From a bacterium (GTDB taxonomy: Bacteria > Patescibacteriota > Minisyncoccia > Phycocordibacterales > Phycocordibacteraceae): 64,000 bases of DNA. A model generated the notes under the pieces. The model was given only the letters and a program-made list of their open reading frames with translations. It made no database searches and was not told the DNA's origin. Position 1 is the first letter of the stretch, and each line of letters starts with the position of its first letter. The DNA is taken from positions 21,136 through 85,135 of the forward strand of contig JAKBHL010000006.1 in assembly GCA_021836725.1 (NCBI GenBank), in the 5' to 3' direction. The translations under genes and the position numbers were made by a program. Positions 2,560 through 61,777 of the stretch are shown piece by piece.

Positions 2560-2713
2560 GGTGCAGATAGATAGATTGTGTGACTAAGGTATCAAATCAG
2601 TAGCCGAAGATAGAAGCTCGATCCCACTTCTCTGGATCCAGCGCTGGTTGACGGATGTACAGTAGCAATTCTCCGGTTCGCTGTCAATACGTTGCGGGAT
2701 CGCGGGTGCAAAG

Positions 2714-2866
2714 AATTCATTTCAAAACTCTAGGCGACGCGAGGGGTATGCGGCAGAAAGAGGCTTACGGAGCGCGACGGTGCGAGTACGAGCCGCTTTT
2801 TGAGCACAAAAAGACGGCGTACTCCTTTCTGTCGCATACCCGAGCGGCGGGTTTTGAAACGGGTTC
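2714..2866. repeat. palindromic repeat element, copy 1 (same family as 5447, 10330, 38005, 48383, 60824)
   Basis: Shares the core GGTATGCGGCAGAAAGAGGCTTACGGAGCG...GAGTACGAGCCGCTTTTTGAGCACAAAAAGACGGCGTACTCCTTTCTGTCGCATACC and the outer CATTTCAAAAC/GTTTTGAAA arms. Confidence 0.75.
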
Positions 2867-2924
2867 TAAAACAGGAAACACATGCTACACTGATGCGTAT
2901 CAAACACTATAGACAATCATAGTT

Positions 2925-3626
2925 ATGGACGCATCTGACCAGACCCCCTTTACCTATAGGGATTTTTTGAAGAAAGACAAATTGTATTCGCTCCTCAGCG
3001 CTTTCCTGATGCTTGCCGTCGCATTCGCGTTCGAGCATGTCGCTTCCGTGTATGCGTATGCGTATCTGGCACGCTCCACCTCTGCGCCCGTGGGGGATAT
3101 CCTTCTCGACAATCTTCCGGTCGTCAATCTGAATTTCCTCATCATCGAGGGCGCGCTGATCTCTATCGTCCTCGGGACGCTGTTCGTGTTCTCGAAGCCG
3201 CGCTACATCCTTTTCACCCTCAAAGCCGTGGCGCTCTTTATCGCAACACGGGCCTTTTTCACCTCTCTGACACACGTAGGCATCTACCCGGGCGCCATAA
3301 ATCCCGGCGCAGGATTTTTCGACAGCATTTACATATACCTCGATTTCCAAACCGGCCTCTTTTTCTCAGGCCACACCGGTTTGCCGTTCCTCATGGCCCT
3401 TATTTTCTGGCGCGAGCCGTTCCCGCGCGCCGTGCTGCTGTCGCTTTCTTTCATCTTCGCCGTTGCCGTGCTTTTAGCGCACGTCCACTACTCGATCGAC
3501 GTATTCGCGGCGCCGTTCATGGCCTACGGCATATTTACGATCGCAAAGAAATTCTTCCCGCGCGATTACGCGCTCATCGATCCGGAGCCGCAACGTCCCG
3601 CCCCACTTCCCGCGCCAGCGCTTTAG
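2925..3626 (+). CDS. PAP2-superfamily / sphingomyelin-synthase-like membrane protein
   Basis: Multi-TM protein with FSGHTG (PSGH-like) and HYSIDVF (HxxxD) motifs characteristic of the PAP2/SMS phosphotransferase fold. Confidence 0.55.
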   Translation: MDASDQTPFTYRDFLKKDKLYSLLSAFLMLAVAFAFEHVASVYAYAYLARSTSAPVGDILLDNLPVVNLNFLIIEGALISIVLGTLFVFSKPRYILFTLKAVALFIATRAFFTSLTHVGIYPGAINPGAGFFDSIYIYLDFQTGLFFSGHTGLPFLMALIFWREPFPRAVLLSLSFIFAVAVLLAHVHYSIDVFAAPFMAYGIFTIAKKFFPRDYALIDPEPQRPAPLPAPAL

Positions 3627-4529: not shown

Positions 4530-5339
4530 TTAATTCCCCTCAGAATGAGGTGTCGTCGTGGAAGACCACGTAGGACCGGTCGATCCTTCGCTATTCTGTA
4601 CGCAGGTACCGCCCTCATCGACAATCGGACCAAGCTGGCAGTGGAGCCCTTCGGCGCACTGCGGCGCATTCTGGATAAAGCCGCCGCAGTGTGCGCCTAC
4701 GCCCACTTTCGCGTGCTCTCCTCCGCTCACGTCACCGGTCGAAGAGGCCGTGGAGTCGGAAGACGAAGAAGAGGAATCTCCCATCTCGCATTCCACCTCC
4801 AATTCCTTGTTTATATCTTCACGGGTCAGCGGCCCGACATTCCCGTAGCCCGTGGATTCGGAATCGCCCGAGGAAACGATGCCCTGAGCGGCCTGCCAGC
4901 GCTGTACCGCCGCCAACGTCGACGAGCCGAAGTAACCGGTGACGGCGTCTTCGGGGTAGATGCTCTTATTTTTTCCGAGGAACGCTTGCAGACGGGACAC
5001 TTCGCCTTCCGTGGTCCGATCGGTGGACCCGATACTCATGTTAGTCGAGAGCAGAGCGCAATTACCATTGCCGCTTGAGGTCGGCGTAGTGCCGCTTGAA
5101 GGATTCGAGCCGTTTGATGTCGAGGTTTGCGTCGAAGTCGCCGTATTTTCGAGCGCCGCCTGCACGTTTGCGATCGTCGCCGTATCGGCGCCGAATGCCT
5201 GCAGGAGGTTGAGTATGGCCTGGATCTGAACCGTGCTCAGAGGCGCGGCCTGGGCAAGAGAAGCGCCACCCAAAACGCTGACGACGAACGCCGCGCCGGT
5301 CACTAGGGAAAGAAAACGATGATTTCTAAAGAAGTGCAT
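4530..5339 (-). CDS. secreted protein with a PG_binding_1-like peptidoglycan-binding domain and Ser/Thr-rich linkers
   Basis: Signal-peptide-like N-terminus (MHFFRNHRFLSLVTGAAFVVSVLGGASLAQA). TGYFGSSTLAAVQRWQAAQGIV matches the peptidoglycan-binding repeat. Long S/T/G-rich low-complexity tracts. Cys-rich C-terminus. Confidence 0.6.
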   Translation of the reverse strand: MHFFRNHRFLSLVTGAAFVVSVLGGASLAQAAPLSTVQIQAILNLLQAFGADTATIANVQAALENTATSTQTSTSNGSNPSSGTTPTSSGNGNCALLSTNMSIGSTDRTTEGEVSRLQAFLGKNKSIYPEDAVTGYFGSSTLAAVQRWQAAQGIVSSGDSESTGYGNVGPLTREDINKELEVECEMGDSSSSSSDSTASSTGDVSGGEHAKVGVGAHCGGFIQNAPQCAEGLHCQLGPIVDEGGTCVQNSEGSTGPTWSSTTTPHSEGN

Positions 5340-5446
5340 TGTTACGTAAGCTAGCCAGTAATAACTTAAGAGGCCCATTCATGGTAGCACGGCACGGGAA
5401 CCCCCGAAGGGCTTTTGGGGGAAAACTCCTCTAGCCCAATGACACT

Positions 5447-5604
5447 AGAACCCATTTCAAAACCCCACTCCCCGCGAGAGGTATGCGGCAGAAAGAGGCT
5501 TACGGAGCGCGACGGCGCGAGTACGAGCCGCTTTTTGAGCACAAAAAGACGGCGTACTCCTTTCTGTCGCATACCCGAGAGCGGGGGTTTTGAAATGGGT
5601 TCTA
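5447..5604. repeat. palindromic repeat element, copy 2 (best preserved; perfect 21-bp terminal inverted repeats TAGAACCCATTTCAAAACCCC / GGGGTTTTGAAATGGGTTCTA)
   Basis: About 158 bp with an imperfect internal palindrome. ORFs called inside it on both strands are judged spurious. Confidence 0.8.
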
Positions 5605-5718: not shown

Positions 5719-5892
5719 ATGAGCACGAATAAAAAACCGAAGTCAGACCCTTCCTCCGGACCCTACGCGGCGATCCGCGCCATGAATAAAGAAGCGGTGC
5801 AAACCTTCCTCAAGGGAGAGAGCACCGATCCCGCTCAACTCATCGAGCGGTTTGAAGAGCGAGCGGAACTTGAGAGCAGGGAAGAAGGATAA
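5719..5892 (+). CDS. small hypothetical protein (57 aa)
   Basis: ATG with GAGGTG RBS 6 nt upstream. MSTNKKPKSDPSSGPYAAIRAMNKEAVQTFLKGESTDPAQLIERFEERAELESREEG. A strong terminator follows. It is below the ORF-track length cutoff. Confidence 0.4.
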   Translation: MSTNKKPKSDPSSGPYAAIRAMNKEAVQTFLKGESTDPAQLIERFEERAELESREEG

Positions 5893-5916: not shown

Positions 5917-5950
5917 AAAAGGGTACCCACGGGTACCCTTTTTGTTTTTT
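5917..5950 (+). terminator. rho-independent terminator
   Basis: AAAAGGGTACCC-AC-GGGTACCCTTTTTGTTTTTT. Confidence 0.7.
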
Positions 5951-10263: not shown

Positions 10264-10329
10264 ACGAACCTCCTCACCAATGGGCACGCCGGATTATACC
10301 GTAGAAAATTGCGTTTGCCATGTGTCTCG

Positions 10330-10480
10330 GAACCCATTTCAAAACCCCACTCCCTGCGAGAGGTATGCGGCAGAAAGAGGCTTACGGAGCGTGACGACGC
10401 GAGTACGAGCTGCTTTTTCAGCAGAAAAAGACAGCGTACTCCTTTCTGTCGCATACCCGAGCGGGGGTTTTGAAATGAAC
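10330..10480. repeat. palindromic repeat element, copy 3 (right terminal repeat partly degenerate)
   Basis: GAACCCATTTCAAAACCCCACTCCCTGCGAGAGGTATGCGGCAGAAAGAGG...GGGGGTTTTGAAATGAAC. Confidence 0.75.
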
Positions 10481-10495
10481 TCCCCGAACAAGCGT

Positions 10496-11020
10496 TTAGC
10501 AGGTGACGCAGAGCCCTGCAGCGCGGCGCGCTGAAAAGTACAAGCCGATCGCCACGACAACGAGCATGGCCAGGACGATGTACGACTGATTTGCGGCGAC
10601 GAAGAGCGCGCCGCCGCCAAGGCCGAGCACGCCGAGCAGGATGCCGATACCGCACCCACACGAAGCGGCCGCGAGTACGCCGCCGGTGAACGAGGCGACG
10701 AGGCCGATGCCGCTTTCTCCGGCGGCGCGCAGGCTCCGCGTTCGGGAGCGTCGAAACGCAAAAAGCTCAAATGACAACAGCACGCCGGTCATAAGCGCAA
10801 GAGCGGCAAGCAAAGCATAGTTGAGCGCGGTCATCCGCGAGAGTTCGAGCGCGAGCGTGTTGCCCGGGACAAGCCACACGGGCACGAGAAGATACACGCT
10901 AAAAAACACAAGCGCGCTAGCTATTGAGATGATCCCGTACAAAGGTTTCCGAAACACACTCGCACCGGCGTGAAGCGTCGTGCGCATTTCAAGCCCGTAT
11001 TCTCTGTATTTCTCCAGCAT
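10496..11020 (-). CDS. integral membrane protein, unknown function
   Basis: Four to five hydrophobic helices and Gly-rich GxxxG-like stretches (LGVLGLGGGALF). Confidence 0.45.
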   Translation of the reverse strand: MLEKYREYGLEMRTTLHAGASVFRKPLYGIISIASALVFFSVYLLVPVWLVPGNTLALELSRMTALNYALLAALALMTGVLLSFELFAFRRSRTRSLRAAGESGIGLVASFTGGVLAAASCGCGIGILLGVLGLGGGALFVAANQSYIVLAMLVVVAIGLYFSARRAAGLCVTC

Positions 11021-11672: not shown

Positions 11673-12389
11673 TCAGGAGAGGATCGGGACGGCATACGTT
11701 TTCCTAAAGAGGATGGAATAAATGGTTATGTCCGTGACCACGATGCACCAGATGATGAGTGCGAGCTGAGCGTATCCGAAAAATACCCCGAGGAATGCGA
11801 ATAAAGCGAGCAGTGCTTCCACGGTGGTTATTTTCAGTTTTCGGAAAACGACCGCTGGGTTTTGCATGGACGGGAGTCTCAGTGTGTAGGTAAGCATCTC
11901 AAAAAGGAGGAATGCCAGTATGAGGATGCTGAAATACCCGGGATGGGCGAAAGAGAACGCGAGAGAGAGGTGGAGGAAAAGCAAGACCGCATGGAGCATT
12001 TTTTGGATGATCGTGTGGGCAGGCAGGACTTTCGAGACGAATGAATGGGAAGCGTACTCTTTCCACACGAGCGTCCCGTAGATGATGACCAGGGGCCATA
12101 CGAGCATCAAGTTCTGCAGGGCAATAGCCACACCGATAACGCCGAACACAACGAATAAAGCGATTTTTGCCGCCGCCCTTTTTTGAGAACTCATAAAAAC
12201 GTATGACGCCAGTGTACCATGGAGTGTGGTCATGCTCGCATACCCAAGATGAAATCCGGATGAAGAAGCGCGGAATGCTCTCTTCTCTTCGGGTAATGGA
12301 ATAAAAAGAAAGAACGTCACAGAACCTAGGTTCTGTGACGTCCAATTTTGATACTCGAAGCGTTGCTTAAGCCATAAACACCAGGCCAT
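11673..12389 (-). CDS. integral membrane protein, unknown function (start uncertain)
   Basis: Mostly hydrophobic with six or more predicted helices. No motif recognised. Confidence 0.4.
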   Translation of the reverse strand: MAWCLWLKQRFEYQNWTSQNLGSVTFFLFIPLPEEKRAFRASSSGFHLGYASMTTLHGTLASYVFMSSQKRAAAKIALFVVFGVIGVAIALQNLMLVWPLVIIYGTLVWKEYASHSFVSKVLPAHTIIQKMLHAVLLFLHLSLAFSFAHPGYFSILILAFLLFEMLTYTLRLPSMQNPAVVFRKLKITTVEALLALFAFLGVFFGYAQLALIIWCIVVTDITIYSILFRKTYAVPILS

Positions 12390-12525
12390 ATCGTTCCATG
12401 TCGATTACGAAGCAAGCGGGGTTGATAGTTCCCCAATTGATTCGTTCATCACCAACAACGTAAGACACGTCCGGATGCATTTGGTCAAGCACTTTTGCTC
12501 CTACATGGAGATATGAAAGAATATA

Positions 12526-13197
12526 ATGATATACGAATCAATTTATATGAAGTTTCCCCAAAACCAAAAAGAGAATATAGTCGGTCTTCATTTCTTATAT
12601 TCCCTAGAGTTCGAGATTTCGTATGTGCAGAATCTCGTGAAGAAATTTGTATGGTATCTGGAACAGGGATATCCTTCCGAGCTCATCCTGCTTCCACAAG
12701 GGGTGACTCAGCACTCGACAGAGGAAGAGGTCACGCAGGCGTTACAAGTCGAATACGATGCTGCCGATTATGCAGCATGTGCCGCGAGCCTACAGGAAGA
12801 ATGGAGAGATATCTCTGGAGGTTTTGAGAAGATGTGCAAGGAGCCAGTATTTCGTCTTGGAGACGAGTACAGCGTCGTCTTGACGAAGTACGGTACGGGG
12901 GGTAATTACAACGTCACTATGAGCCGAGTGACTATCCGTATCAATGCTCAGTCCTCCAAGAAGATGGCGGCGACTGTTGTGCACGAGATTATCCACATGA
13001 CCATCCAATACCTCATCGATCAGTATCGTGTGCGGCATTGGCGCAAAGAACGTCTCGTTGACTTGCTTGTCGAACGTTATTTCCCGGGGTTGAAGAAGAT
13101 GCAGATGATCAAAGAGGATGTTTCGATGGTCGATTCGGCGTTCAGTGAATCGTTTCCGGATATTGAAGCGATAGTACGGTCGATCCGATCATCGTGA
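12526..13197 (+). CDS. hypothetical protein with an HExxH motif (possible zinc-metallopeptidase-like fold)
   Basis: AATVVHEIIHMTIQYLIDQY. AT-rich codon usage unlike the neighbouring core genes. Confidence 0.4.
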   Translation: MIYESIYMKFPQNQKENIVGLHFLYSLEFEISYVQNLVKKFVWYLEQGYPSELILLPQGVTQHSTEEEVTQALQVEYDAADYAACAASLQEEWRDISGGFEKMCKEPVFRLGDEYSVVLTKYGTGGNYNVTMSRVTIRINAQSSKKMAATVVHEIIHMTIQYLIDQYRVRHWRKERLVDLLVERYFPGLKKMQMIKEDVSMVDSAFSESFPDIEAIVRSIRSS

Positions 13198-13257
13198 ATA
13201 ACGCGTCTGGGCGCGAAGGCGCTATCATCGACGGAAACATCCGATGAAGTAATATCA

Positions 13258-13287
13258 GTGTTAACAAGGTTAAACCTTGTTCTGACA
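13258..13287. repeat. 30-bp direct repeat, copy A (GTGTTAACAAGGTTAAACCTTGTTCTGACA; contains an AACAAGGTT-A-AACCTTGTT palindrome)
   Basis: Identical 30-mer recurs at 14804-14833. Confidence 0.8.
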
Positions 13288-13321
13288 CAAAAATATATTT
13301 AATTTAGTATTAACTCACAGT

Positions 13322-13573
13322 TTGGCATACGCTATAATTAAAAGCCTGGCAGAAGTAGCTAGAAAAATGAAGGAAGAAAACTTTACATTTCCGAGGGGTA
13401 CTTTACATAAAGTTTGTTGGGATATCTATCAGAAAGATAAGAGTGGTCAATATGAATCTGACTATGGAGATTTTTCTGAAATCGAGATCGATCAAATGGA
13501 AGACGAAAAATTTATTACAACGTTGCAGGATGAAATTAATTATTTAGAAAATAAATATGGACAAGCTACATAA
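13322..13573 (+). CDS. small acidic hypothetical protein
   Basis: AT-rich 83-aa ORF with no recognisable motif. Its 3' end overlaps the next gene by 17 nt. Confidence 0.35.
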   Translation: MAYAIIKSLAEVARKMKEENFTFPRGTLHKVCWDIYQKDKSGQYESDYGDFSEIEIDQMEDEKFITTLQDEINYLENKYGQAT

Positions 13574-14540
13574 AAAACACGTTCACAAGACAAAATCTGG
13601 CGGTACCGTCTCCCAATTCATTGAATCAAAGAATTTACCGGCGGATATCCAAATCAGTTCGTTCATAAATTTTGTCCATTTTGGAAGCGAGGTAATTTTG
13701 ACGCCGGACGACGGTACGTCTTGGGGCCCGGTTTCCGGGGAAATAAAAGGGCAAGTGGACTGGAGAAAAGAACTGGTGCGCGAGACAGGTGAAAAGGCCG
13801 GAGTGTTGGTTGATGGTGTGGTCTTGTGCGGATATATTTCAAATGAAAGTAAGGTAGGCGATTCCGATTCCGTTACGACAATCTCTCCCATATGTTATTC
13901 CTATTGTCACGATATTAATCCCACGTGGACTCCGAAAGGAATAATGACGAGAGAACTTTTTTCTCATTCCAATGTTAAGGAACACCTAGCGAAGAGAAAC
14001 GACGAGGGTCAGATGTTAGAACTGTATCTGTATATACACGACCAGTTTAATAGGGATCTGCGCATCGAATTTTCTTTTTTACCCGACGAAATGCCGGATG
14101 TCATATTCGTGACATCGGCAATGGTTTTTTGCATCGATGATGACAATCGAATATGCCTTGTTAAAGACGGTGATGAGGATTTTTATAGTCTACCCGGAGG
14201 AGGTCGTAGGCTTCTCGAATCTCCACTGGAATGTGCAAAGCGGGAACTGCAAGAAGAGGCTCAGATTACCGCGAAGAACTTCAAAATCTTTGGAAGCATA
14301 ATCGTTAGCTTCTATTCAAACGACGTCTTGATCTCTAAGATGCAACAAGCCAGGTATATTTGCGACGTAGATGTTATGGGGGAATTCATTCCTTTCAAAG
14401 ACGGTTTCGAGACGGATGAAAGAATATTCGTTCAGGCGGATCAACTTCTAACACTTGGTAAACAGTTCAAAAATAATAACGGCATCCAAATCGTTGAGCA
14501 TTTAATAAAGATACAACTTGATCGAGAACACAACGCTTGA
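13557..14540 (+). CDS. two-domain protein: unknown N-terminal domain plus C-terminal Nudix hydrolase domain
   Basis: LPGGGRRLLESPLECAKRELQEEAQI matches the Nudix box GX5EX7REUXEEXGU. Confidence 0.6.
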   Translation: MDKLHKKHVHKTKSGGTVSQFIESKNLPADIQISSFINFVHFGSEVILTPDDGTSWGPVSGEIKGQVDWRKELVRETGEKAGVLVDGVVLCGYISNESKVGDSDSVTTISPICYSYCHDINPTWTPKGIMTRELFSHSNVKEHLAKRNDEGQMLELYLYIHDQFNRDLRIEFSFLPDEMPDVIFVTSAMVFCIDDDNRICLVKDGDEDFYSLPGGGRRLLESPLECAKRELQEEAQITAKNFKIFGSIIVSFYSNDVLISKMQQARYICDVDVMGEFIPFKDGFETDERIFVQADQLLTLGKQFKNNNGIQIVEHLIKIQLDREHNA

Positions 14541-14561
14541 TATTGAAGATCAGCTGTAGCT

Positions 14562-14813
14562 ATGCATGTGAAGAGAATCCCGCAGGAGATTATAGGCAAT
14601 CGAGATATTAGCACGGTCACTCTCGATATTGATGGAACGATGGTTAATGAGTACGTAGAAATGCCGGACGAGATTATCGATGCGGTTCGTCAGTTACTAG
14701 GCGCGAAAGTGCACATTGTGATTTGTACAGCTCGCAGTATTGAGAGTATTCTAAAACTTTTCAAGAAATTCTTTTCCGAAGAGGAGATGAGTCTATTTTC
14801 CACTCCGTGTTAA
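14562..14813 (+). pseudogene. truncated HAD-superfamily (Cof-like) hydrolase; only the N-terminal 83 aa remain
   Basis: VTLDIDGTMVN is HAD motif I (DxDGT). The reading frame runs straight into the second copy of the 30-bp repeat and stops there. Full-length members are about 270 aa. Confidence 0.5.
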
Positions 14814-14833
14814 CAAGGTTAAACCTTGTTCTG
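14804..14833. repeat. 30-bp direct repeat, copy B
   Basis: Identical to 13258-13287. Confidence 0.8.
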
Positions 14834-15157
14834 ACAGCAAAAAATGCGAACATCCATCAGCAAGGATCAGTCCCTTGGCGTCCCAAAATGGACCGAGCGG
14901 ATGATTGAGAAGTTCGGACCTGAACTCACCATGCGGCAGCGAGGGAGGCCAAGAAAAGGTATCTGACACCATTTCCACCATTTCCATCAATTTTGGAGGC
15001 CGCACATATGTGCGGTATGTTGCCTCAAAAGGAACGTTCTTGCTCAACAATATGTTAATCTCTATAAAACTGCTATTGACGCTTATCAGGCTGATAAGCA
15101 GTTTGAACCTTGGTCGCATTTAACAAGAACGCTTCAAGCCCAATTTAAATAGTCGCT

Positions 15158-16078
15158 ATGCAAGAAATCTCTGAAGCTTTAAAGGAATATGGCCTGTCTG
15201 CGAACTCGCCTATAAATCTTGTTCGCGAATCTGCGGACAATGTTGTGTATGTTATTGGTGAAGATGATAAGAAAATCTTAAGAATTAGCAAAAGACTTTC
15301 TGTTGAAGATGTTGCTTTCGAATATGAAGCAATAAAATACCTCGCACAAAATGGTGTACCTGTAGCGCACTGGCTAACGACGAAAGCGGGGAAGGAATAC
15401 TCGTTGGTAGATGGCCACGCCGCAGTTCTTTTTGATTTTTTGACTGGCCATCATATAAATGTTGATAAAGATAATCTCCCGACACAAGTTCAAGCTTATT
15501 CCGCCGGAGCAGAGTTGGGTCGTATGAGTAATGCCGCCAGTACGTTTACATCAAATGCTCCGAGAACGAGAACTATTTTTTCTGAGCTCGAGCGCGTGCT
15601 CTCCCTTGAAGAAATGTTTGTTAAGGATTTTGAAGGCGGTGAGGAATTCGTTAACCAAGTTAAAGAAGCACTAAAATTCGGTAGAGCACAAAACGAGATA
15701 ATTGGCTTTATTCACAATGACTATCGTCCAAGCAATGTATTTTTTGATGAGAACGATCAAGTGACGGGAATAATCGATTTCGATTGGAGCTGCATGGGCC
15801 CAGTAGTTAAAGACTTAGCTCTAGCACTCGTGGAATGGTCTTTCCCAGATGGAGCCACCGAAGCAAATATGGCGCTATTCCAAGGATTCCTAGATGGATA
15901 CAATTCTATTTCGAATAAGAAGTGGAAGAAGGACGACAAACTCTATTCTTGGATTAAATTCGCCACTCTTTCTGATGCATCAACATATTTTTGCGACTTG
16001 GCTGAAGACCTGACTTCAACTAAGCGAATCATTAAGTCGTATATGTATCGAAAGTTCACGTTCTTTTCACAAGCCTAG
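15158..16078 (+). CDS. phosphotransferase (APH / choline-kinase-like) family kinase
   Basis: IHNDYRPSNVFF (Brenner HxDxxxxN catalytic loop) and GIIDFDW (DFG-equivalent) motifs. Confidence 0.65.
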   Translation: MQEISEALKEYGLSANSPINLVRESADNVVYVIGEDDKKILRISKRLSVEDVAFEYEAIKYLAQNGVPVAHWLTTKAGKEYSLVDGHAAVLFDFLTGHHINVDKDNLPTQVQAYSAGAELGRMSNAASTFTSNAPRTRTIFSELERVLSLEEMFVKDFEGGEEFVNQVKEALKFGRAQNEIIGFIHNDYRPSNVFFDENDQVTGIIDFDWSCMGPVVKDLALALVEWSFPDGATEANMALFQGFLDGYNSISNKKWKKDDKLYSWIKFATLSDASTYFCDLAEDLTSTKRIIKSYMYRKFTFFSQA

Positions 16079-16183
16079 TCATGGAGCCATATCTTTATTT
16101 GCAGGGTTTAAAGAAGCTTGCCAAAGAGGCCCGTGGAGATGAAGTAATACATATCGGGATAAGACCTGTGCTATAGTCTTTGC

Positions 16184-17269
16184 ATGACGGCGGAAACTCG
16201 CCCGGTCATCCTCACAGGCAACAACGAGGTTGCCAAGCTTCGAGCGTCCCATCCGGAGCTCGTCGAAGTCGACGCGTTCGTGCGCCAGCTAAAGGAGCTT
16301 TTCTTCATCGACAATCATGCGTTCATCGGTACGCCGAAAGAAGAGGCCTATGCGACCGAAGATTTCAAGAAGTATGCGTCTTCGAAAGAAGGCGCATTTG
16401 TCTATGTATATTTCCCCTGGAACAATACGCTCGTGAAGACCGTCGATGCCGGGGATTACTACCGGCTCAAGACGAATCGCAACCAAGACCTTATCACTGC
16501 CGAAGAACAGAAGAAGCTGCGCGACTACAAAGTCGCGGTGCTCGGGATGAGCGTCGGCTCCAACGTCGCATTCGTGCTCACGCAAGCGGGGATTTCAAAT
16601 GACATCATCCTCGCCGATTTTGACGAGCTCGATACCACCAATCTCAATCGCATCCTTGCCGGCGTGCATGAGGTCGGCTTGAATAAGACCGTCATCGCGG
16701 CGCATCGCATTTATGAAGACAATCCGTTTGCAAACGTCACCCTGCTCCAAGAGGGGATACATGAGACCAATCTCGAAGAGCTCATCAAAGCCGGCAAGAT
16801 AAACTGTATTCTCGAAGAGATTGATGACTTGCCGTTCAAGATTCACGCGCGCCTGCTCGCGATGAAATATAAGATTCCTGTGGTGATGGTGACCGACAAC
16901 GGCGACGGTGTCGTGCTCCACGTCGAACGGTACGATCTCGGCCACGACATGATCTGGGGCAAGCCGCACGAATACTACGAGGAAAAGCTCGCCGACGGCC
17001 CTATGACCAAAGAAAAAGCGGGCGACATCATCATCCACGACATCGTCGGCGGCGTGCACAGGGTCGATCCGAAAATGATCGCAAGCGTGAAGCGCGTGCT
17101 TGCCAAAGAACTGGTGTCGTGGAGCCAGCTCGGCTCGGCGGCGATCCTCGGTGCGGTTGTCGCGACCTACGCGATAAAAGAAATCGCGCTTGGCAAGGGA
17201 ACCAAGAAAGATATTCGTGTATGGATCAGCCCGGAGCAGGTTGAACACGGCACGCACGCCGCCTCGTAA
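16184..17269 (+). CDS. ThiF/MoeB (E1-like) family adenylyltransferase with an approximately 110-aa N-terminal extension
   Basis: Rossmann motif KVAVLGMSVGSNVAFVLTQAGI (GxGxxG) followed by DFDELDTTNLNR. TATAGT box 13 nt upstream of the ATG with no obvious SD. Confidence 0.65.
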   Translation: MTAETRPVILTGNNEVAKLRASHPELVEVDAFVRQLKELFFIDNHAFIGTPKEEAYATEDFKKYASSKEGAFVYVYFPWNNTLVKTVDAGDYYRLKTNRNQDLITAEEQKKLRDYKVAVLGMSVGSNVAFVLTQAGISNDIILADFDELDTTNLNRILAGVHEVGLNKTVIAAHRIYEDNPFANVTLLQEGIHETNLEELIKAGKINCILEEIDDLPFKIHARLLAMKYKIPVVMVTDNGDGVVLHVERYDLGHDMIWGKPHEYYEEKLADGPMTKEKAGDIIIHDIVGGVHRVDPKMIASVKRVLAKELVSWSQLGSAAILGAVVATYAIKEIALGKGTKKDIRVWISPEQVEHGTHAAS

Positions 17270-17271
17270 TC

Positions 17272-18366: not shown

Positions 18367-18370
18367 TGCT

Positions 18371-19918: not shown

Positions 19919-19930
19919 AGCTGAATTAGT

Positions 19931-20719
19931 TCATTTCTCCTCTCTATTTTTTATCTTGTTGGTATTAAGCCGTCCGGCTTCTTCCCACGCAAGATTGAAG
20001 AGGCTCTTCATAACATCTGCAATATCCTGGCTTTGAATAATCACGCCGAATTCCTCGCTTGTTGAAATAAATACGATTTTGTCCGCATATATACGCAGTT
20101 CAGAAGAAAATGGATATATATCGGCTGGCACACATCGTACTCTTGAGGCGCCACTCTCATTTAATGATGAGCGCTCGACAGTTTTTTCGTAGGGGGAAAT
20201 GATCTCCGTTTTATATTTACGTTGTAAATTTTGATTCTTCCAAAAGGAAAATGATGAGCCAGAAATAACTCCTGCTGATACAGGTAAAAATGTGTACACT
20301 TGCGTCCCCTGCGGGTAGGCTAGCAGGTCATTACTAACAGTTTGTATTCCACCAACCCCTTCGTAAAACAATACATGTGGCTGGCTCTTTAGCTTCTTCG
20401 ATACCGAGAGAAGTTCGGAAAGCAATAAATTCATTTCATTTTCCTGTCGAGCTGAGCCCCGAGCCAACTTATCAGCTCGTTCCACAAGTTTTTCTGGGGA
20501 GACAGCGTAGTATTTAAGAATCCCGTTCTGCTGTGTTTTCTCGACAAATCCCTGCTTTACAAGTGTGGCAAGTAACATATAGGCCGACGACCGATTGAGT
20601 TTTGCTTCTCTTGCGGCCTCACGCGCGCTTGCCGGACCCATAGTAAGTAATCCCTGATAAAGTACAGCCGCTTTTTCCGAAAGTCCAAATTCTTGGAGAT
20701 GTGACAGTAGAGTATTCAT
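19931..20719 (-). CDS. TrmB-family transcriptional regulator
   Basis: N-terminal winged HTH LSEKAAVLYQGLLTMGPASAREAAREAKLNRSSAYMLLATLVKQGFVEK plus a C-terminal TrmB-like domain. Paralogous to the next gene. Confidence 0.6.
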   Translation of the reverse strand: MNTLLSHLQEFGLSEKAAVLYQGLLTMGPASAREAAREAKLNRSSAYMLLATLVKQGFVEKTQQNGILKYYAVSPEKLVERADKLARGSARQENEMNLLLSELLSVSKKLKSQPHVLFYEGVGGIQTVSNDLLAYPQGTQVYTFLPVSAGVISGSSFSFWKNQNLQRKYKTEIISPYEKTVERSSLNESGASRVRCVPADIYPFSSELRIYADKIVFISTSEEFGVIIQSQDIADVMKSLFNLAWEEAGRLNTNKIKNREEK

Positions 20720-21495: not shown

Positions 21496-21652
21496 ATAGG
21501 CACAACAGGCGGGAACTCACCTCGCCCATTTGTTGTCAGATATTAGCAACAATATGAAATATGGACAAGACAGCCACTTACTGAGATGGAGATAATCCAG
21601 GCCGATATTTTTGGTGTCATTTCGGACATCTTCAAAATAGAGTTGTTATAAA

Positions 21653-24728: not shown

Positions 24729-24735
24729 AGCACCC

Positions 24736-26334: not shown

Positions 26335-26362
26335 ATTCAAGAAATATGACATTCGTGATATA

Positions 26363-37973: not shown

Positions 37974-38004
37974 TCCGGGAAGGGTTTCGCGCGATTAGGA
38001 TCCC

Positions 38005-38120
38005 CCCGCGAGGGGTGTGCGACGGAAAGGAGTACGCCGTCTTTTTCTGCTCTAAAAGCGGCTCGTACTCGCCCCGTCGGGCTCCGTAAGCCTCTTTCAA
38101 CCGCACACCCCTCGCGGGGC
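38005..38120. repeat. palindromic repeat element, copy 4 (inner palindrome only, reverse orientation, outer arms missing)
   Basis: CCCGCGAGGGGTGTGCGACGGAAAGGAGTACGCCGTCTTTTTCTGCTCTAAAAGCGGCTCGTACTCGCC...CTCTTTCAACCGCACACCCCTCGCGGGG. Confidence 0.65.
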
Positions 38121-38187
38121 CGGTCAAATCTCCTAAGATGTCATCTTGAAGATGCTATCTTGGGAGATTTGGGAGATTGAGGGGATT

Positions 38188-46689: not shown

Positions 46690-48380
46690 AATGGCGGCGT
46701 ACGCGGCGGCAGGATCCCGAGATCGCTCCCGATGAGATATTCCTCGACGCATCGAATGCGCCGGATTTTGACCGCGCGCGCTTTGAGGGGCGGCTCGAGA
46801 AACCGCTTTCGCGCGGGACGTTTCTGACGCTCTCGTTCACGCTCGTGCTTCTGCTTGGCATCCTTATCCTCCGCTCATGGAATCTTGAAATCACCAACGG
46901 CGCCGCTTTCGCCGCCGAGAGCGCTCATAACAGCCTTGAAGTGACGACGCTGTTCGCGTCGCGCGGCGTCATCACCGATCGTTACGGGAACGTACTTGCC
47001 GACAACGTCGCAAAAGCGGACGGCAGCACGATACGTAATTACCCGGTGCCTTCTCTTGGTCAGATCATCGGGTATGTCTCATATCCGAAAAAAGATTCAC
47101 ATGGCGTGTATTACGACACGCGCGAGACCGGTATTGCCGGACTTGAAGCGGAATACGATTCATTCCTCGCCGGCACAAACGGCCACATCCTCACCGAGCG
47201 GGACGCGTTCGGCAATATCCGTTCAGAGGGAGGCATCATTCCCGCAAAAGACGGAGGGACGCTCAAGCTCTCGATCGACGGGCCGCTCGAACAGCTGTTT
47301 GCCCGAGCCATTACGGATGTCGCGCGCAAACAGCACTTCATGGCCGGTGCCGGCGTCATCATGGACGTGCACTCCGGTGCCATACGCGCCATTTTTTCCT
47401 ATCCGAGCTACGACCCGAATGTGATGGCGAACGGCGGCCCCGCGGCTGCCATCAACGCCTACAACACCGATCAGGGCTATCCTTTCCTCGATCATGCGGT
47501 GCAGGGCGTGTACGCGCCCGGTTCCATCGTGAAGCCGTTTATCGCTTCCGGAGCGCTCACCGACGGGATCATTACGCCGAGCACCACCATCGACGACCCG
47601 GGCTTCCTTTCGTTGCCCGATCCTTACCATCCCGGCAAGACATTCATCTATAAAGGATGGAAAGCGCTCGGCATAGTCGACGTGAGAAAGGCGATTGCCT
47701 GGTCCTCGGACGTTTTCTTCTACACGGTCGGCGGCGGCTTCGGAAAGCAAAAAGGCCTCGGCATCGACCGGCTCGACTACTGGTACCGGCAATTCGGTTT
47801 CGGGCGGCCGACCGGCATCGATTTGCCGGAAGAAGCGAGCGGGCTGGTCCCGAGTCCCGCATGGAAGGAAAGAACGCTCGGCGAACCGTGGTACCTCGGC
47901 GATACGTACTTCACGGCGATCGGGCAATACTCGATGCAAGTAACGCCGCTCCAGATAGCGCGCGCCACCGCCGCGATAGCCAATGACGGGAAGCTCTATA
48001 CCCCGACTTTGCTCGCCGGGCAGACGCCCTCGTATGTGACCGTGCCGGTCGCCACGTCGACGTTTGCCGTTGTGCGCCAGGGGATGCGCGAGGGTGTAAC
48101 CGGCGCGCTCGCGCAGGCGATCAACCTCCCATATCTGAGCGTGGCGGCAAAGACCGGTACCGCGCAAACAGGCGTACACAACCAGTATGACAATGCGTGG
48201 GTCGAAGGATTTTTCCCGTACCACAATCCGCAATACGCTTTTTCAGTCGTGCTTGAACGGGGACCAAACGGCGCGGGCGAACAGGCGGTGAATGTCATGC
48301 GGGAACTTTTCGACGCTCTTCATGCCGCGAACTCGCCCTACGTCGGCGGAACCGCAACCACCACAGCACTCATACACTAA
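46686..48380 (+). CDS. mrdA: penicillin-binding protein 2 (peptidoglycan D,D-transpeptidase MrdA)
   Basis: N-terminal TM, dimerisation domain, transpeptidase motifs GSIVKP (SxxK), SSD (SxN-like), KTGTAQ (KTG). Confidence 0.8.
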   Translation: MKWRRTRRQDPEIAPDEIFLDASNAPDFDRARFEGRLEKPLSRGTFLTLSFTLVLLLGILILRSWNLEITNGAAFAAESAHNSLEVTTLFASRGVITDRYGNVLADNVAKADGSTIRNYPVPSLGQIIGYVSYPKKDSHGVYYDTRETGIAGLEAEYDSFLAGTNGHILTERDAFGNIRSEGGIIPAKDGGTLKLSIDGPLEQLFARAITDVARKQHFMAGAGVIMDVHSGAIRAIFSYPSYDPNVMANGGPAAAINAYNTDQGYPFLDHAVQGVYAPGSIVKPFIASGALTDGIITPSTTIDDPGFLSLPDPYHPGKTFIYKGWKALGIVDVRKAIAWSSDVFFYTVGGGFGKQKGLGIDRLDYWYRQFGFGRPTGIDLPEEASGLVPSPAWKERTLGEPWYLGDTYFTAIGQYSMQVTPLQIARATAAIANDGKLYTPTLLAGQTPSYVTVPVATSTFAVVRQGMREGVTGALAQAINLPYLSVAAKTGTAQTGVHNQYDNAWVEGFFPYHNPQYAFSVVLERGPNGAGEQAVNVMRELFDALHAANSPYVGGTATTTALIH

Positions 48381-48382
48381 AA

Positions 48383-48527
48383 TCCATCTCAAACCCCCTG
48401 CTCGGGTATGCGGCAGAAAGGAGTACGCCGTCTTTTTGTGCTCAAAAAGCGGCTCGTACTCGCGTCGTCACGCTCCGTAAGCCTCTTTCTGCCGCATACC
48501 CGAGCGGTGGTTTTTGAATGGGTCCTC
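48383..48527. repeat. palindromic repeat element, copy 5 (reverse orientation relative to copies 1-3; perfect GCGGCAG/CTGCCGC arms)
   Basis: ATCCATCTCAAACCCCCTGCTCGGGTATGCGGCAGAAAGGAGTACGCCGTCTTTTTGTGCTCAAAAAGCGGCTCGTACTCGCG...CTTTCTGCCGCATACCCGAGCGGTGGTTTTTGAATGGGTCC. Confidence 0.75.
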
Positions 48528-59464: not shown

Positions 59465-60823
59465 TTGCTCTCTTTGTCTTATTTATTTGTCCTAGCAAAT
59501 TACTCTATGCAAGTAGGGCGTTGGAATCATCAATCGACAGGCGGGCATGCGCCAAGCGGCGGACGTGCGTATTCGCCGCGCCCTTCAAGGCAGGGCGGGC
59601 CGAGCGGACCGCGCCGTTTCGATACTCACGGCGGTTTCGGCCGCGGCGGCTACGGCAATCGCGGTCGTGCTCCCGTGCGGCGCAAGAAGGGCTTCGGCTC
59701 TTTCGGCGAAACGGAGTCTGAGATCTCGAAGTTCATGAATAAAACGGTCGTCACGACCGAGGAGCCGGTATTCGTCCCCGAACACACATTCTCGGATTTC
59801 GCGGTGCATGAAAAATTGCAGAAGAACATAGCCGCAAAGGGCTACGATCTCCCGACGCCCATCCAAGATAAAGCAATTCCGCATGCACTTTTGGGTCAGG
59901 ATGTCGTCGGCCTTGCCGAAACCGGAACCGGAAAGACGGCGGCTTTCCTCATCCCGCTTATCGATAAGGTTATGAAGCAAAAAGGTGAGCGCGTTCTCGT
60001 CATGGCGCCTACCCGCGAGCTTGCGGTGCAGATTGAAAAAGAGCTCGCCGGTTTCGCGAAAGGTCTCGGGTTTCGCGGCATGGTCGCGGTCGGCGGCGCG
60101 AATATCGGGCCTCAGATTTCGATGCTCCGATATGATCCGGCATTCGTCATCGGTACTCCCGGGCGCCTGAAGGACCTCATGGAACGCCGCGCGCTCGATC
60201 TTTCCGGTTTCGGCACGGTCGTACTCGACGAGGCGGATCGCATGCTTGATATGGGTTTCATCGACGATATGCGCGCCATCCTCGGGATGATGCGTAAAGA
60301 ACGCCACACGCTCTTTTTCTCCGCAACGATGTCGAAAGATATCGAACGGCTTATCGGCGATTTCCTTTCAAGTCCGGTCATCATCTCGGTGAAAAGGCGC
60401 GACACTCCTTCAAGCGTCGACCAAGATGTCGTCCGCATCCCGCGCGGAAAAGACAAGTTCGACGTACTTGTCGAGCTTCTTAAAAATCCCGACTTCAGCC
60501 GCGTGCTCGTCTTCGGCCGCACCAAGTTCGGCGTGGAGAAGCTCGCCAAGGCGCTCTCGCGCCTCCACATCCATGCGGAGAGCATCCACGGCAACAAGAC
60601 GCAGGGCGCGCGCCAGAGAGCGCTCGACGCTTTCAAGGCGGGGAAGGTGAGCGTGCTTGTCGCGACCGACGTCGCGGCGCGCGGTATCGATATCCCCGCC
60701 GTCTCGCACGTCATCAACTACGACCTTCCCTCGACCTACGAGGATTACGTGCACCGCATCGGCCGCACCGGCCGCGCCGACAAGAAAGGGAAAGCACTAA
60801 CCTTTGTCCAGGAGCGCTACTAG
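59465..60823 (+). CDS. DEAD-box ATP-dependent RNA helicase with an Arg/Gly-rich N-terminal extension (start uncertain: 59465, 59507 or 59736)
   Basis: Q motif (F...GY..PTPIQ), AETGTGKT, VLDEADRMLDMGF (DEAD), SAT, HRIGRTGRA. Upstream in-frame GGFGRGGYGNRGR tract. Confidence 0.8.
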   Translation: MLSLSYLFVLANYSMQVGRWNHQSTGGHAPSGGRAYSPRPSRQGGPSGPRRFDTHGGFGRGGYGNRGRAPVRRKKGFGSFGETESEISKFMNKTVVTTEEPVFVPEHTFSDFAVHEKLQKNIAAKGYDLPTPIQDKAIPHALLGQDVVGLAETGTGKTAAFLIPLIDKVMKQKGERVLVMAPTRELAVQIEKELAGFAKGLGFRGMVAVGGANIGPQISMLRYDPAFVIGTPGRLKDLMERRALDLSGFGTVVLDEADRMLDMGFIDDMRAILGMMRKERHTLFFSATMSKDIERLIGDFLSSPVIISVKRRDTPSSVDQDVVRIPRGKDKFDVLVELLKNPDFSRVLVFGRTKFGVEKLAKALSRLHIHAESIHGNKTQGARQRALDAFKAGKVSVLVATDVAARGIDIPAVSHVINYDLPSTYEDYVHRIGRTGRADKKGKALTFVQERY

Positions 60824-61000
60824 CTCATTTCAAACTCCCGCTCGGGTATGCGGCAGAGCGGAGAGCGGCAAGCAGTTTTGGAGCGTCCGGAGCACGACGG
60901 TGCGAGGCAGAGCAAATTTTCAGCAGAAAATTATGCGGCTCCAAAACTGCTTGCCGCTCGAAGCCCTGACGTTACCCGTGCATAAGGAGTACGCCGCGCG
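60824..61000. repeat. palindromic repeat element, copy 6 (composite: family left arm, then an unrelated perfect 22-bp inverted repeat, family right arm truncated by the recR 3' end)
   Basis: CTCATTTCAAACTCCCGCTCGGGTATGCGGCAG then GAGCGGCAAGCAGTTTTGGAGC(60862-60883)...GCTCCAAAACTGCTTGCCGCTC(60938-60959) then ...AAGGAGTACGCCG. Confidence 0.7.
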
Positions 61001-61004: not shown

Positions 61005-61607
61005 CTAGGTTTCTTTGCGGTTGGTGAGTGCCGCGCGAAGCGTCTCGGCATCGGAGTATTCCAGTTCGCTGCCAGTCGCAAGGCCGCGACCGAGCTCTGA
61101 GACCTTCACGTGATCGCGATAGGGCTGCAGAAGCGCCCGCACGTGATCAGCCGTGTGTTCGCCCTCGCTCGTTGCTGAAAGCGCGAGCACGACCTCTTTC
61201 AATCCCGTTTTCAAACGCTTTTCAACGCTCCGCACGAGCTCTTTTTCCCGGATGCCGCCTTTCCCGGAGAGAGTGAGTACGCCGCCGAGCACGAAATAAC
61301 GGCCCTTATAGGTGCCTGCGCGCTCTACGGCAGCAAGGTCCTGGTCTTTTTCTACGAGCATCAAAAGCGAATCGTCACGCCTCCCCTCACCACAGTAGTC
61401 GCAGACGGCCGCCGCCGTGCCGTTGTAGAAGCGCAGGCACTCGGGGCACTGGCGCACGTTTTTACCGAGCGACACGATGAGTTCGGCGAGTTTCGCGCGC
61501 TCCGCAGGAGGCGCCGCAAGCAGGTAAAAGACGAAACGCTTGCCCTGGCGCGGCCCGATCCCCGGAAGGCGGGAAAGCGCTTGTGCGAGTTCGTCAATCT
61601 TGTCCAT
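61005..61607 (-). CDS. recR: recombination protein RecR
   Basis: LSRLPGIGPRQGKRFVFYLL (HhH), C4 zinc finger CPECLRFYNGTAAAVCDYC, Toprim domain. Confidence 0.85.
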   Translation of the reverse strand: MDKIDELAQALSRLPGIGPRQGKRFVFYLLAAPPAERAKLAELIVSLGKNVRQCPECLRFYNGTAAAVCDYCGEGRRDDSLLMLVEKDQDLAAVERAGTYKGRYFVLGGVLTLSGKGGIREKELVRSVEKRLKTGLKEVVLALSATSEGEHTADHVRALLQPYRDHVKVSELGRGLATGSELEYSDAETLRAALTNRKET

Positions 61608-61618
61608 AACCTAACAGC

Positions 61619-61762
61619 GAATGCGTAATTTTGGAACACGCGTCGGCTCGCCCAGCCGCTTGCCGCGCTCACTCTCGCCGCTGCAAATTTCGGCGCAGCC
61701 TCCCTTCGGCGCCGAAATTGCCATGCTGCAGCGGCTCCGAGAGTTTCCAAAATTACGCATTC
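61619..61762. other. 144-bp structured element filling the dnaB-recR intergenic space (perfect 18-bp terminal inverted repeats plus an internal near-perfect 13-14-bp hairpin)
   Basis: GAATGCGTAATTTTGGAA...GCAAATTTCGGCGC-AGCCTCCCTTCG-GCGCCGAAATTGC...TTCCAAAATTACGCATTC. Ends 12 nt from the recR start codon. Confidence 0.6.
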
Positions 61763-61777
61763 GCTGTGTCGTCATGA

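Follow-up and report, generated by a model that had tools for sequence, protein, structure and literature searches.

An interspersed intergenic hairpin repeat with a covarying three-way-junction tip in Patescibacteria, a candidate non-autonomous repeat family

The 64-kb window (the whole stretch of DNA that was analysed), from a Parcubacteria-type genome of the candidate phyla radiation (CPR), carries seven copies, six strong and one variant, of an intergenic hairpin repeat of ∼150 bases. Each unit is a hairpin of 120–170 nt whose tip forms an asymmetric, T-shaped three-way junction of the helices P1, P2 and P3 and, judging by the sequences searched, the repeat corresponds to no Rfam family and to no description in the literature searched. 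We consider it an even bet that this is a non-autonomous repeat family of the REPIN/MITE kind, in which the junction tip would serve as a cis-acting recognition module and whose copies would be tolerated or co-opted at gene ends. On this reading, the elements would form a Patescibacteria-wide family of interspersed palindromic repeats, comparable to REPINs, ERIC or MITEs.

Patescibacteria (CPR) have tiny genomes of ∼1 Mb, in which genes are separated by very short gaps and few mobile elements or non-coding RNAs have been recognised. As the 150-nt unit occurs about once per 9–20 kb, the repeat could fill a percent or so of the genome. With a core that covaries from Paceibacteria to Saccharibacteria and Magasanikbacteria, it would be an intragenomic replicator of long standing or else a widespread signal in RNA or DNA that has so far gone unrecognised. 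In both cases, it would provide a ready marker for CPR contigs, would be a likely source of assembly breaks and rearrangements, and points to a partner protein that could be found by comparative genomics. It also offers a case of an interspersed repeat that conserves its apex and not its ends, which bears on the recognition and copying of such repeats.

A covariance model trained on 80 relatives returned six strong matches in the window (2750-2841+, 5485-5576+, 10367-10458+, 38013-38104-, 48404-48495- and 60870-60958+; 73–81 bits). The orientation of each copy is well defined, since the opposite strand scores only ∼8 bits. A search of the window for direct and inverted repeats recovered the family; copies 1–3 are 85–100% identical in register, and the reverse complements of copies 4 and 5 match these at 86–95%. 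The copies lie 0.8–28 kb apart in mixed orientations, and all are intergenic according to Pfam-supported gene calls. They are as follows:

Copy 1 (type A), 2711..2868, plus strand: full length with a degenerate left terminal inverted repeat (TIR), 77.3 bits; in the divergent region between a cold-shock gene (2350-2559, minus) and a PAP2 gene (2925-3626, plus)
Copy 2 (type A, the best copy), 5446..5604, plus strand: 80.4 bits; in the divergent region between a PG-binding gene (4530-5378, minus) and a small gene (5719-5892, plus)
Copy 3 (type A), 10328..10486, plus strand: right TIR degenerate over its last 8 nt, 80.7 bits; begins 16 nt past the stop codon of the gene at 10496-11020 (minus) and precedes a promoter-like site at 10293-10321 (minus); antisense to its flanking genes
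Copy 4 (type A), 38004..38121, minus strand: without outer TIRs, internal loop 'corrected' to perfect pairing, 73.7 bits; the def start (37973) lies 31 nt downstream, and the copy is sense to its flanking genes
Copy 5 (type A), 48378..48527, minus strand: 79.3 bits; its first 3 nt coincide with the PBP2 (46686-48380) stop codon, and a greA promoter-like sequence, TTGCGC-17-TACAAT, follows; antisense to both the PBP2 and greA genes
Copy 6 (composite), 60821..60995, plus strand: 79.3 bits; a type-B element (about 60859-60983, core 60870-60958) nested in type-A remnants (60821-60858 and 60984-60995), the first triplet of which is the helicase stop codon TAG (60821-60823); the DEAD-helicase and recR genes on either side converge
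Copy 7 (variant), 61605..61776, minus strand: 42.7 bits; occupies the dnaB-recR gap, with P1, the junction, the GGA/GA loop and P3 as in the others and a long stem in place of the P2 tip

The first-pass annotation had reported a palindromic intergenic family at six sites, in both orientations and at high density. This description holds, and the covariance model found all six sites, but the variant seventh copy had been overlooked. The best copy, given as 5447-5604, is real and starts at 5446. Copies 4 and 6 had been counted as the same element; both belong to the family, although copy 4 lacks the outer TIRs and copy 6 is of another subfamily, a type-B unit inside the remains of a type-A one.

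The anatomy of the unit is clearest in copy 2, the parts of which are listed below:

5446..5466, plus strand: left TIR, TAGAACCCATTTCAAAACCCC, including the A-tract
5474..5479, plus strand: 5′ side of a purine-rich internal loop in P1, GCGAGA, opposite CGAGAGC at 5576-5582
5480..5495, plus strand: 5′ strand of the P1 inner arm, GGTATGCGGCAGAAAG, pairing with 5560-5575 with one G·T
5496..5559, plus strand: three-way-junction core, the most conserved part, made up of J1/2 and P2a (5496-5503), the GGA loop (5504-5506), the P2 hairpin GCGC-GACG-GCGC (5507-5518), GA and P2a′ (5519-5524), and P3 with its AGCA loop (5525-5555)
5584..5604, plus strand: right TIR, GGGGTTTTGAAATGGGTTCTA, including the T-tract

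The perfect 21-bp TIRs claimed for this copy were recovered at 21/21 positions (5446-5466 on the plus strand, 5584-5604 on the minus strand), and the same sequence recurs with two mismatches at 2848-2868 and 10328-10348; no such match arose in 100 shuffles. The inner arm GGTATGCGGCAGAAAGAGG or its complement occurs nine times in the window, with none expected by shuffling. Inspection of the sequences also bore out the G opposite T in the arms of copies 1–3 and the perfect arm of copy 5. The middle of the element, previously read as an imperfect palindrome, is in reality the asymmetric three-way junction, which is the best-conserved part across Patescibacteria. P2 has the consensus NNC-GGA-GCNC-GACG-GNGC-GA-GNN, with a GACG loop besides a purine loop of the GGA/GA type. 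P3 is capped by an AGCA loop. A K-turn was dropped as an interpretation of the GGA/GA loop, which on inspection is 3x2 and not a 3-nt bulge with tandem G·A, and the likeness of P3 (GAGC...) to group II intron domain V is superficial and finds no support in Rfam.

The same junction was found at 80 of the 104 genome loci fetched with a 19-base core pattern; the other 24, chance matches to high-GC coding sequence, were excluded. All 80 lie in Patescibacteria-type MAGs, from Paceibacteria lineages, Saccharibacteria and Magasanikbacteria (three MAGs bear a 'Gammaproteobacteria' label, and a protein search on these returned unnamed proteins). Covariation, which the first-pass annotation had proposed to test, is very strong: compensatory changes occur in 26/26 pairs of the ∼70-nt core, 93.8% of the cells in its alignment are paired, compared to 63% in shuffles, and the covariation score of 0.76 lies far above the 0.12–0.19 of controls. 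The secondary structure is thus conserved and backed by compensatory changes beyond controls. When 16 full-length type-A copies were aligned by sequence only, 92% were paired and 29/64 pairs compensated. Part of the covariation in P1 is no proof of selection, since template switching in long palindromes also yields compensatory changes. The P1 arms diverge fast between copies yet remain complementary, and in Saccharibacteria they are copy-specific and perfectly complementary over 25–50 bp, which fits a templated correction of one arm against the other. The notion that these are acquired, 'spacer-like' arms was rejected, as the arms of different copies are diverged homologues (e.g., L034 and L039).

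A search of the whole window against Rfam (4,227 families) at the gathering threshold returned two tRNAs only and nothing at the repeats. Copy 2 alone had no match at E<=10, and two relatives (L008 and L018) gave only far sub-threshold matches to generic hairpin (miRNA precursor) models, so that the Rfam comparison suggested by the first-pass annotation produced no family. Literature searches, including one with the literal core sequence, found no description of the repeat. The core pattern had no matches in 2.9 million viral contigs, and blastn against plasmids and phages likewise returned none. An attC, CRISPR or tRNA-derived origin found no support.

One strand of the repeat is the selected fold, as shown by G·U pairs, purine-rich loops and folding energy. 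The core-sense strand folds better in 81/100 family members (by a mean of 6.6 kcal/mol, p=6e-13) and has more G·U pairs than the opposite strand (332 vs 248) and more purine-rich unpaired positions (1,369 vs 810). The first-pass annotation had suggested that the fold is selected at the RNA level; selection on one strand stands, but the bias is independent of host transcription. By crude gene calls (ORFs >=80 aa, with small genes missed), 34 elements are sense to their flanking genes, 34 are antisense, 13 are convergent and 9 are divergent, so that the orientation bias which that annotation had thought worth seeking was not found. Cores score equally well whether the context is sense or antisense, and the G·U bias stays on the element's own strand in both. 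Because the strand bias ignores the direction of host transcription, it does not establish selection as RNA within mRNA, and a folded single DNA strand fits it equally well. A riboswitch or cis-regulatory leader was rejected because orientation is random (34:34) and the neighbours share no family; no recurrent neighbouring gene was seen near 97 elements.

In 51/68 codirectional cases, a copy is separated by a shorter distance from the preceding stop codon than from the following start (p=4e-5), a location at the 3′ ends of transcription units. Copies 3, 5 and 6 abut stop codons, which in copies 5 and 6 overlap with the TIR. Every copy had been said to sit between genes, often where a terminator would be expected; all are intergenic, but terminator placement applies to 5/7, copies 1 and 2 being in regions of divergent promoters. 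At the hairpin base, 41/100 elements have an A-tract on the 5′ side and a T-tract on the 3′ side, as is also seen in the type-A TIRs, and 12/100 have the two reversed. A simple terminator scan of the window does not call the elements because their 'loop' is too long.

These positions, together with the covariation of the junction across the superphylum and the preference for a defined strand, lend some weight to the main rival explanation, that the repeat is a host-functional structured RNA, although we regard this as rather doubtful. The element would then be a putative terminator, processing site or stabiliser of intergenic or 3′-UTR RNA, with the tip a putative site for a Patescibacteria-specific RNA-binding protein, or a sponge or ribozyme, and its use by the host at many operon boundaries would explain why the family multiplied. 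The GGA/GA and tandem G·A loops are of a kind typical of RNA-protein sites, and the P2 tip accepts extensions of variable length, as is often true of functional RNAs. At the PBP2-greA site, no other hairpin lies between the stop codon and the promoter of greA, and the element is present in all relatives examined. Copy 7 is kept, with compensated stems, in genomes with 83% RecR identity. However, half of the copies are antisense to their flanking genes with cores equally conserved, the strand bias stays the same whichever way transcription runs, and two of the window copies occupy divergent promoter regions. The genome also has ordinary terminators, some of them beside an element.

Copies have been gained, lost, nested and decayed; the decayed copies, and an inversion that leaves the core in place, further argue against a host-functional RNA. 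This inversion in situ was found between L117 and L118, where the elements are 87% identical as reverse complements vs 63% directly; the flanks are collinear and the core is intact. At the recR-helicase site, L107 and L108 retain a core-deleted remnant and a further deleted one. Copy 7 has an orthologue in L110 but is absent from L107-L109, and L112-L116 carry an insertion of ∼60 nt in the P2 loop. No copies were found near the QueC homologues in L119-L122, relatives from one metagenome scan that are too diverged to align. Every orthologous comparison in the recR, greA and QueC neighbourhoods led to a filled site, to a remnant or to DNA that could not be aligned, and none uncovered an empty site bearing a target duplication.

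Inversion without loss of the core is also what might be seen if the repeat were a structural site in DNA, a cruciform or single-stranded T-shaped hairpin resembling a parvovirus ITR and recognised by a chromosomal protein of replication, recombination, nucleoid organisation or DNA uptake. Orientation to genes would be irrelevant to such a site, in keeping with the lack of orientation bias and with conservation that is independent of transcription context; near-perfect or perfect arms favour extrusion, and the palindrome holds two internal palindromes. DNA hairpins also tolerate G·T and G·A mismatches, but the wobble bias and purine-rich loops are more typical of RNA, and stop-codon-hugging positions are not predicted. 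Moreover, the copies have no visible orientation pattern along the window, where the GC skew is flat and uninformative, and the site has no known partner protein. We consider a DNA-level site unlikely.

The architectural likeness to the AAV ITR lies in a long palindrome around two short ones, giving a T-shaped three-way junction, and in two inverted configurations (flip/flop) at the same place. In AAV, the ITR caps a linear ssDNA genome at either end and Rep nicks it, whereas the repeat lies within the chromosome, between genes, and no Rep/HUH gene was seen; the likeness is architectural only. Integron attC sites are also strand-specific folded palindromes with extrahelical or mismatched bases, recognised as single strands, a mode that for the repeat is only presumed. 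They are conserved at the base (R/L boxes) with a variable centre, and form one-orientation arrays beside an integrase. An attC identity is not supported, given the conserved apex, mixed orientations and wide spacing of the repeat, with no integrase seen in the scanned ORFs.

The least probable of the explanations, and in our view a very improbable one, is a classical MITE that descends from an insertion sequence of the IS630/Tc1-mariner type, in which a DDE transposase binds the TIRs and TA is duplicated on insertion. The first-pass annotation had raised this from TA flanks, and these recur: type-A copies in about ten genomes share the ends TA-GAAC...GTTC-TA, within unrelated flanks. The 150–160-bp length, intergenic location, multiple copies and perfect TIRs of copy 2 also suit a MITE; copy 4 has no TIRs. 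The TA may be a target duplication or a plain part of the repeat, as no empty site was recovered, and the nested type-B insertion of copy 6 has no flanking TA. A Pfam scan of about 40 window ORFs found no transposase, integrase or reverse transcriptase, no IS630-like or other transposase was found beside 97 elements elsewhere, and a TIR search of the window found no further copies flanking an ORF. Furthermore, the interior of the repeat is conserved and the TIRs are lineage-specific, with no conservation in other lineages, the reverse of what TIR-dependent transposition predicts.

The comparison with REP/BIME and Correia-type elements made in the first-pass annotation is apt as an analogy. REPINs are REP doublets that form hairpins and are mobilised by RAYT transposases; they are defined by two inverted, highly conserved REP ends with a less conserved spacer, and are presumed to be moved by a single-copy enzyme encoded elsewhere (PMC3116915). 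Like the repeat, they are intergenic hairpins of ∼100–150 nt, present in many copies, non-autonomous, foldable in ssDNA or mRNA, without an internal gene, persistent over long periods and marked by two-sided compensatory changes. The pattern of conservation is reversed, however, since here the central three-way junction is conserved and the arms are variable. The repeat has no GTAG/CGTC-type head, no RAYT (Y1 transposase) was seen among the window ORFs scanned, and REPIN families are genus-level while the repeat core spans classes of Patescibacteria.

The ERIC, Correia (CREE) and RUP elements are MITEs that can affect termination, RNase processing and mRNA stability. They share with the repeat a build of 100–160-bp imperfect palindromes with TIRs and TA flanks, an intergenic location in either orientation, and insertions often at or in stop codons. 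The repeat differs in having no sequence similarity to them, lineage-specific TIRs, a covarying junction apex shared across the superphylum, no known parent IS, and TA as a possible duplication only.

A non-autonomous mobile repeat remains the reading that we prefer. In its favour are the multicopy state, the covariation of the junction, the transcription-independent orientation, the turnover of sites, arms that fit a templated correction and the placement at stop codons, and neither a recurrent neighbouring gene nor a viral, plasmid or phage copy offers a vector that would account for the copies. The cis-acting module would comprise the junction tip and the purine-rich G·A loops spaced along P1, and a trans-acting enzyme encoded elsewhere in the genome would recognise the tip once one strand self-folds, as ssDNA at the replication fork, as a cruciform or as a transcript. 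Such recognition would let the unit be copied into new intergenic sites and, because the enzyme would recognise the folded strand, the tip would be conserved whatever the direction of the neighbouring gene. The palindromic arms permit flipping, arm-against-arm correction, internal deletion and nested insertion, matching the turnover observed in the DNA. Copies survive mostly just past stop codons, where a long G+C-rich stem between an A-tract and a T-tract may serve as a bidirectional terminator or RNA-stabilising hairpin, so that many would be tolerated or co-opted by the host.

Several observations count against this putative mobile repeat. No mobilising enzyme was found among the window ORFs scanned or near the 97 elements, and no empty site was recovered. 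Unlike in classical MITEs, the terminal sequences are conserved within lineages only. A 70-nt covarying core across class-level lineages is unusual for selfish repeats and would be expected of a host-functional RNA, and orthologous copies persist over substantial divergence at the dnaB-recR and PBP2-greA sites. It is conceivable, if on the doubtful side, that the T-shaped tip is the working part of a new, Patescibacteria-specific system. This could be a folded-strand mobile unit copied by a dedicated enzyme of the HUH, tyrosine-recombinase or reverse-transcriptase type, or a ribonucleoprotein or ribozyme module within terminator-like hairpins, with tens to roughly a hundred copies in a ∼1-Mb genome; the orientation of the units would be reset by flip/flop inversion.

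Bidirectional intrinsic terminators resemble the repeat in their G+C-rich stem, 5′ A-tract and 3′ T-tract, and in their location directly after stop codons in either orientation. The stems of the repeat are 3–5 times longer and have conserved purine loops and a 70-nt junction cap, and some copies lie in divergent regions. Short ordinary terminators coexist with the repeat in the same genome, and sometimes adjoin an element.

The repeat described in the first-pass annotation belongs to a multicopy, intergenic family whose members fold on a defined strand. The 21-nt terminal inverted repeat (TIR) reported there was recovered without mismatch at 5446-5466 (+) and 5584-5604 (-), and two further copies carry it terminally with two mismatches; shuffled sequence is expected to give no match. 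The reported inner arm occurs nine times against an expectation of zero, and a repeat search of the window also recovers the family. In an unfiltered search with a covariance model built from 80 relatives, exactly six copies were strong (73-81 bits), those listed at first pass. The strands opposite these six score about 8 bits, so that each of them has a defined polarity. A search of all sources adds a seventh, variant copy. The copies and their gene contexts are as follows.

Copy 1, 2711-2868 (+): divergent region between a cold-shock gene and a PAP2 gene; relative orientation not applicable
Copy 2, 5446-5604 (+): divergent region between a PG-binding gene and a small gene; relative orientation not applicable
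Copy 3, 10328-10486 (+): directly past the stop of gene 10496-11020; antisense to the flanking genes
Copy 4, 38004-38121 (-): 31 nt upstream of the def start; sense
Copy 5, 48378-48527 (-): overlaps the PBP2 stop codon, ahead of a greA promoter-like site; antisense
Copy 6, 60821-60995 (+): between the convergent helicase and recR genes; sense to the former, antisense to the latter
Copy 7, 61605-61776 (-): occupies the whole dnaB-recR gap; sense

Copies 1 and 2 count as divergent-region copies on account of two small genes below the usual ORF cut-off, encoding a 69-aa cold-shock protein (2350-2559, -) and a 57-aa ORF (5719-5892, +), the latter with its own terminator at 5917-5942. Copy 6, of the type B subfamily, is nested within remnants of a type-A copy; MAGs with the labels Nomura-, Kaiser- and Saccharibacteria hold copies nearly identical to its core.

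A degenerate 19-base pattern taken from the element centre (CGGAGCNNGACGNNGCGAGNNNGAGC), scanned over one genome per species, matched at least 104 loci. Among the 104 matches listed, 24 are chance matches in high-GC coding DNA and 80 lie in Patescibacteria-type MAGs, where the pattern caps a long hairpin in 80 of 80 loci. Host labels of the latter comprise Nomura-, Kaiser-, Yonath-, Niyogi-, Taylor-, Zambryski- and Magasanikbacteria, Paceibacterota, Minisyncoccia and many Saccharibacteria; RecR and GreA homologues carry the names Parcubacteria, Paceibacterota, Kaiserbacteria or Minisyncoccota. Three more MAGs with genuine copies (73-84 bits; loci L009, L052, L056 and L102) are Gammaproteobacteria by record label alone, including that of L052, whose copy is on a 759-kb contig of about 63% GC. 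The consensus structure, obtained from the alignment with RNAalifold, is a three-way junction with these parts.

P1: outer stem, long and variable
J1/2 (joining strand): RCU
P2 (inner hairpin): NNC-GGA-GCNC-GACG-GNGC-GA-GNN
J2/3: NGA
P3 (inner hairpin): GC-stem-(N)AGCA(N)-stem-GC
J3/1: GUN

The junction tip is conserved and covaries across Patescibacteria, and the covariation is very strong. In the 104 model-aligned sequences, 93.8% of cells are paired (63% when shuffled, 39-52% in slid registers), 26 of 26 pairs are compensated and the covariation score is 0.76 versus 0.12-0.19. The corresponding values for 16 full-length type-A elements in a sequence-only alignment are 92% (83% and 38-52%), 29 of 64 pairs and 0.29 versus 0.07-0.14, with P2a switching between C-G and U-A and between U-A and A-U. 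In copy 7, P1, the junction, P3 and the GGA/GA loop are all retained, but a stem of about 70 nt takes the place of the GACG tip of P2. In type A, GAGUAC...GUACUC is able to lengthen P3 at the cost of P2a; the minimum-energy fold of copy 2 is therefore slightly different from the consensus of the family, whose energy is 4.4 kcal/mol higher.

The folding energy of copy 2 is -92 kcal/mol (z = -12); being a near-palindrome, it folds about equally well on its other strand. Across the family, selection has favoured the fold of one strand: of 100 elements, 81 fold more stably on the core-sense strand (mean 6.6 kcal/mol, p = 6e-13), which also carries more G·U pairs (332 versus 248, p = 0.005). The unpaired positions of this strand within P1 are 1369 purines versus 810 pyrimidines (p = 4e-10) and make up recurring loops of the G·A type, among them GAGA/GAGA, GAA/GAA and CGAG/CGAG. 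The G·U bias stays on the element's own strand whether flanking genes are codirectional (92 versus 62) or opposed to it (82 versus 67), and the asymmetry is therefore the element's own rather than imposed by host transcription.

Element orientation is independent of the genes: by crude gene calls, 90 elements comprise 34 sense, 34 antisense, 13 convergent and 9 divergent cases, and cores score alike whether their context is sense or antisense. A cruciform or single-stranded site acting at the DNA level would suit this independence and the T-shaped, ITR-like architecture, but no partner accompanies it and we consider it improbable. Positions near stop codons are preferred, the core being nearer the upstream stop than the next start in 51 of 68 codirectional cases (p = 4e-5; median distances 29.5 and 78.5 nt). 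In both copy 5 and copy 6 the TIR opens with the stop codon itself (TAA or TAG). The hairpin base has a 5' A-tract and 3' T-tract in 41 of 100 elements, and the reverse arrangement in 12. Ordinary short bidirectional terminators coexist in the genome, some adjoining an element.

Comparison of orthologous sites revealed inversion, nesting, decay, gain and loss at the DNA level. At the PBP2-greA site, the window and every relative fetched (L112-L118) carry an element. L117 and L118 encode identical GreA proteins and differ by inversion of the whole element (87% identity as reverse complement, 63% direct), with 69 of 72 right-flank positions matching and a rare GUCG loop common to both. L112-L116 carry an insertion of about 60 nt inside the P2 loop. 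L113 (9700-9900) shares the greA side of L112 (9706-10010) and differs from it in the left flank, the junction falling within the element arms; both its arms descend from the 5'-type arm, and the switch was produced either by a rearrangement that the element mediated or by chimeric metagenome assembly at the repeat. At the recR-helicase site, the nested composite of the window corresponds to a type-A copy with its core deleted in L107 and a shorter remnant in L108. Copy 7 is found at the dnaB-recR site of the window and L110 (9855-9992; 83% RecR identity), with compensated stems, and is absent from L107, L108 and L109. QueC homologue neighbourhoods of L119-L122 contain no element. The main rival to the reading favoured below is a host RNA module, in which the hairpin would terminate or process transcripts and its tip would bind a protein. 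Deep conservation and the persistence of orthologous copies speak for it, random orientation, in-situ inversion and the copies in divergent regions against it; we regard it as possible but less likely.

In Saccharibacteria the arms differ from copy to copy but pair without a mismatch along 25-50 bp, and the purine loop has turned to perfect pairing in copy 4 and L054. This pattern fits arm-against-arm templated correction, so some of the 'covariation' in P1 may come from mutation and not from selection. The ends are lineage-specific and the interior is conserved, which renders the first-pass proposal of an IS630-type origin with TA target duplication very doubtful.

We favour, at about an even chance, a non-autonomous repeat family of the same kind as REPIN, ERIC and MITE elements. 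The junction tip would be a cis-acting module that an enzyme with its gene elsewhere recognises on a single strand in folded form, and copies may be tolerated or co-opted as bidirectional terminator-like hairpins. No transposase was seen among 396 clustered neighbouring ORFs of 97 elements, where no family occurred in more than four loci, or in Pfam scans of about 40 window ORFs. The element matched no Rfam family and no plasmid or phage sequence, and its core pattern was absent from viral contigs. Neither core nor element was found in the searchable literature, and a description elsewhere is possible. Interspersed palindromic repeats are known as a kind; the superphylum-wide, apex-conserved three-way-junction repeat with flip-type inversion is a variant absent from Rfam and that literature.

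The window also contains a lower-GC stretch at 12000-32000 (43-50% versus 55-61% elsewhere) without any element copy, possibly acquired; TrmB-type regulators, histidine kinases, NUDIX and APH-type enzymes are among its gene products. Direct repeats of 42 nt (98% identical) at 31059-31100 and 34285-34326, 3.2 kb apart, look like an integration scar, the second lying 28 nt past the tRNA-Asn 3' end (gene 34354-34426, -); no integrase was seen between them. Another 42-nt repeat (90% identical; 13255-13296 and 14804-14845), which includes the palindrome TTAACAAGGTTAAACCTTGTT, lies upstream of a NUDIX-domain and an APH-type kinase gene and may be a shared operator. Repeats of 81 nt (75-80% identical) in the histidine-kinase region (26260-26340, 26852-26932 and 29090-29170), the first spanning the 3' end of kinase gene 24736-26334, resemble the ends of paralogous genes more than a mobile repeat. 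Diverged similarity (75-82%) between 39912-40419 and 44615-45113 represents two MreB-family paralogues in a cell-shape gene cluster.
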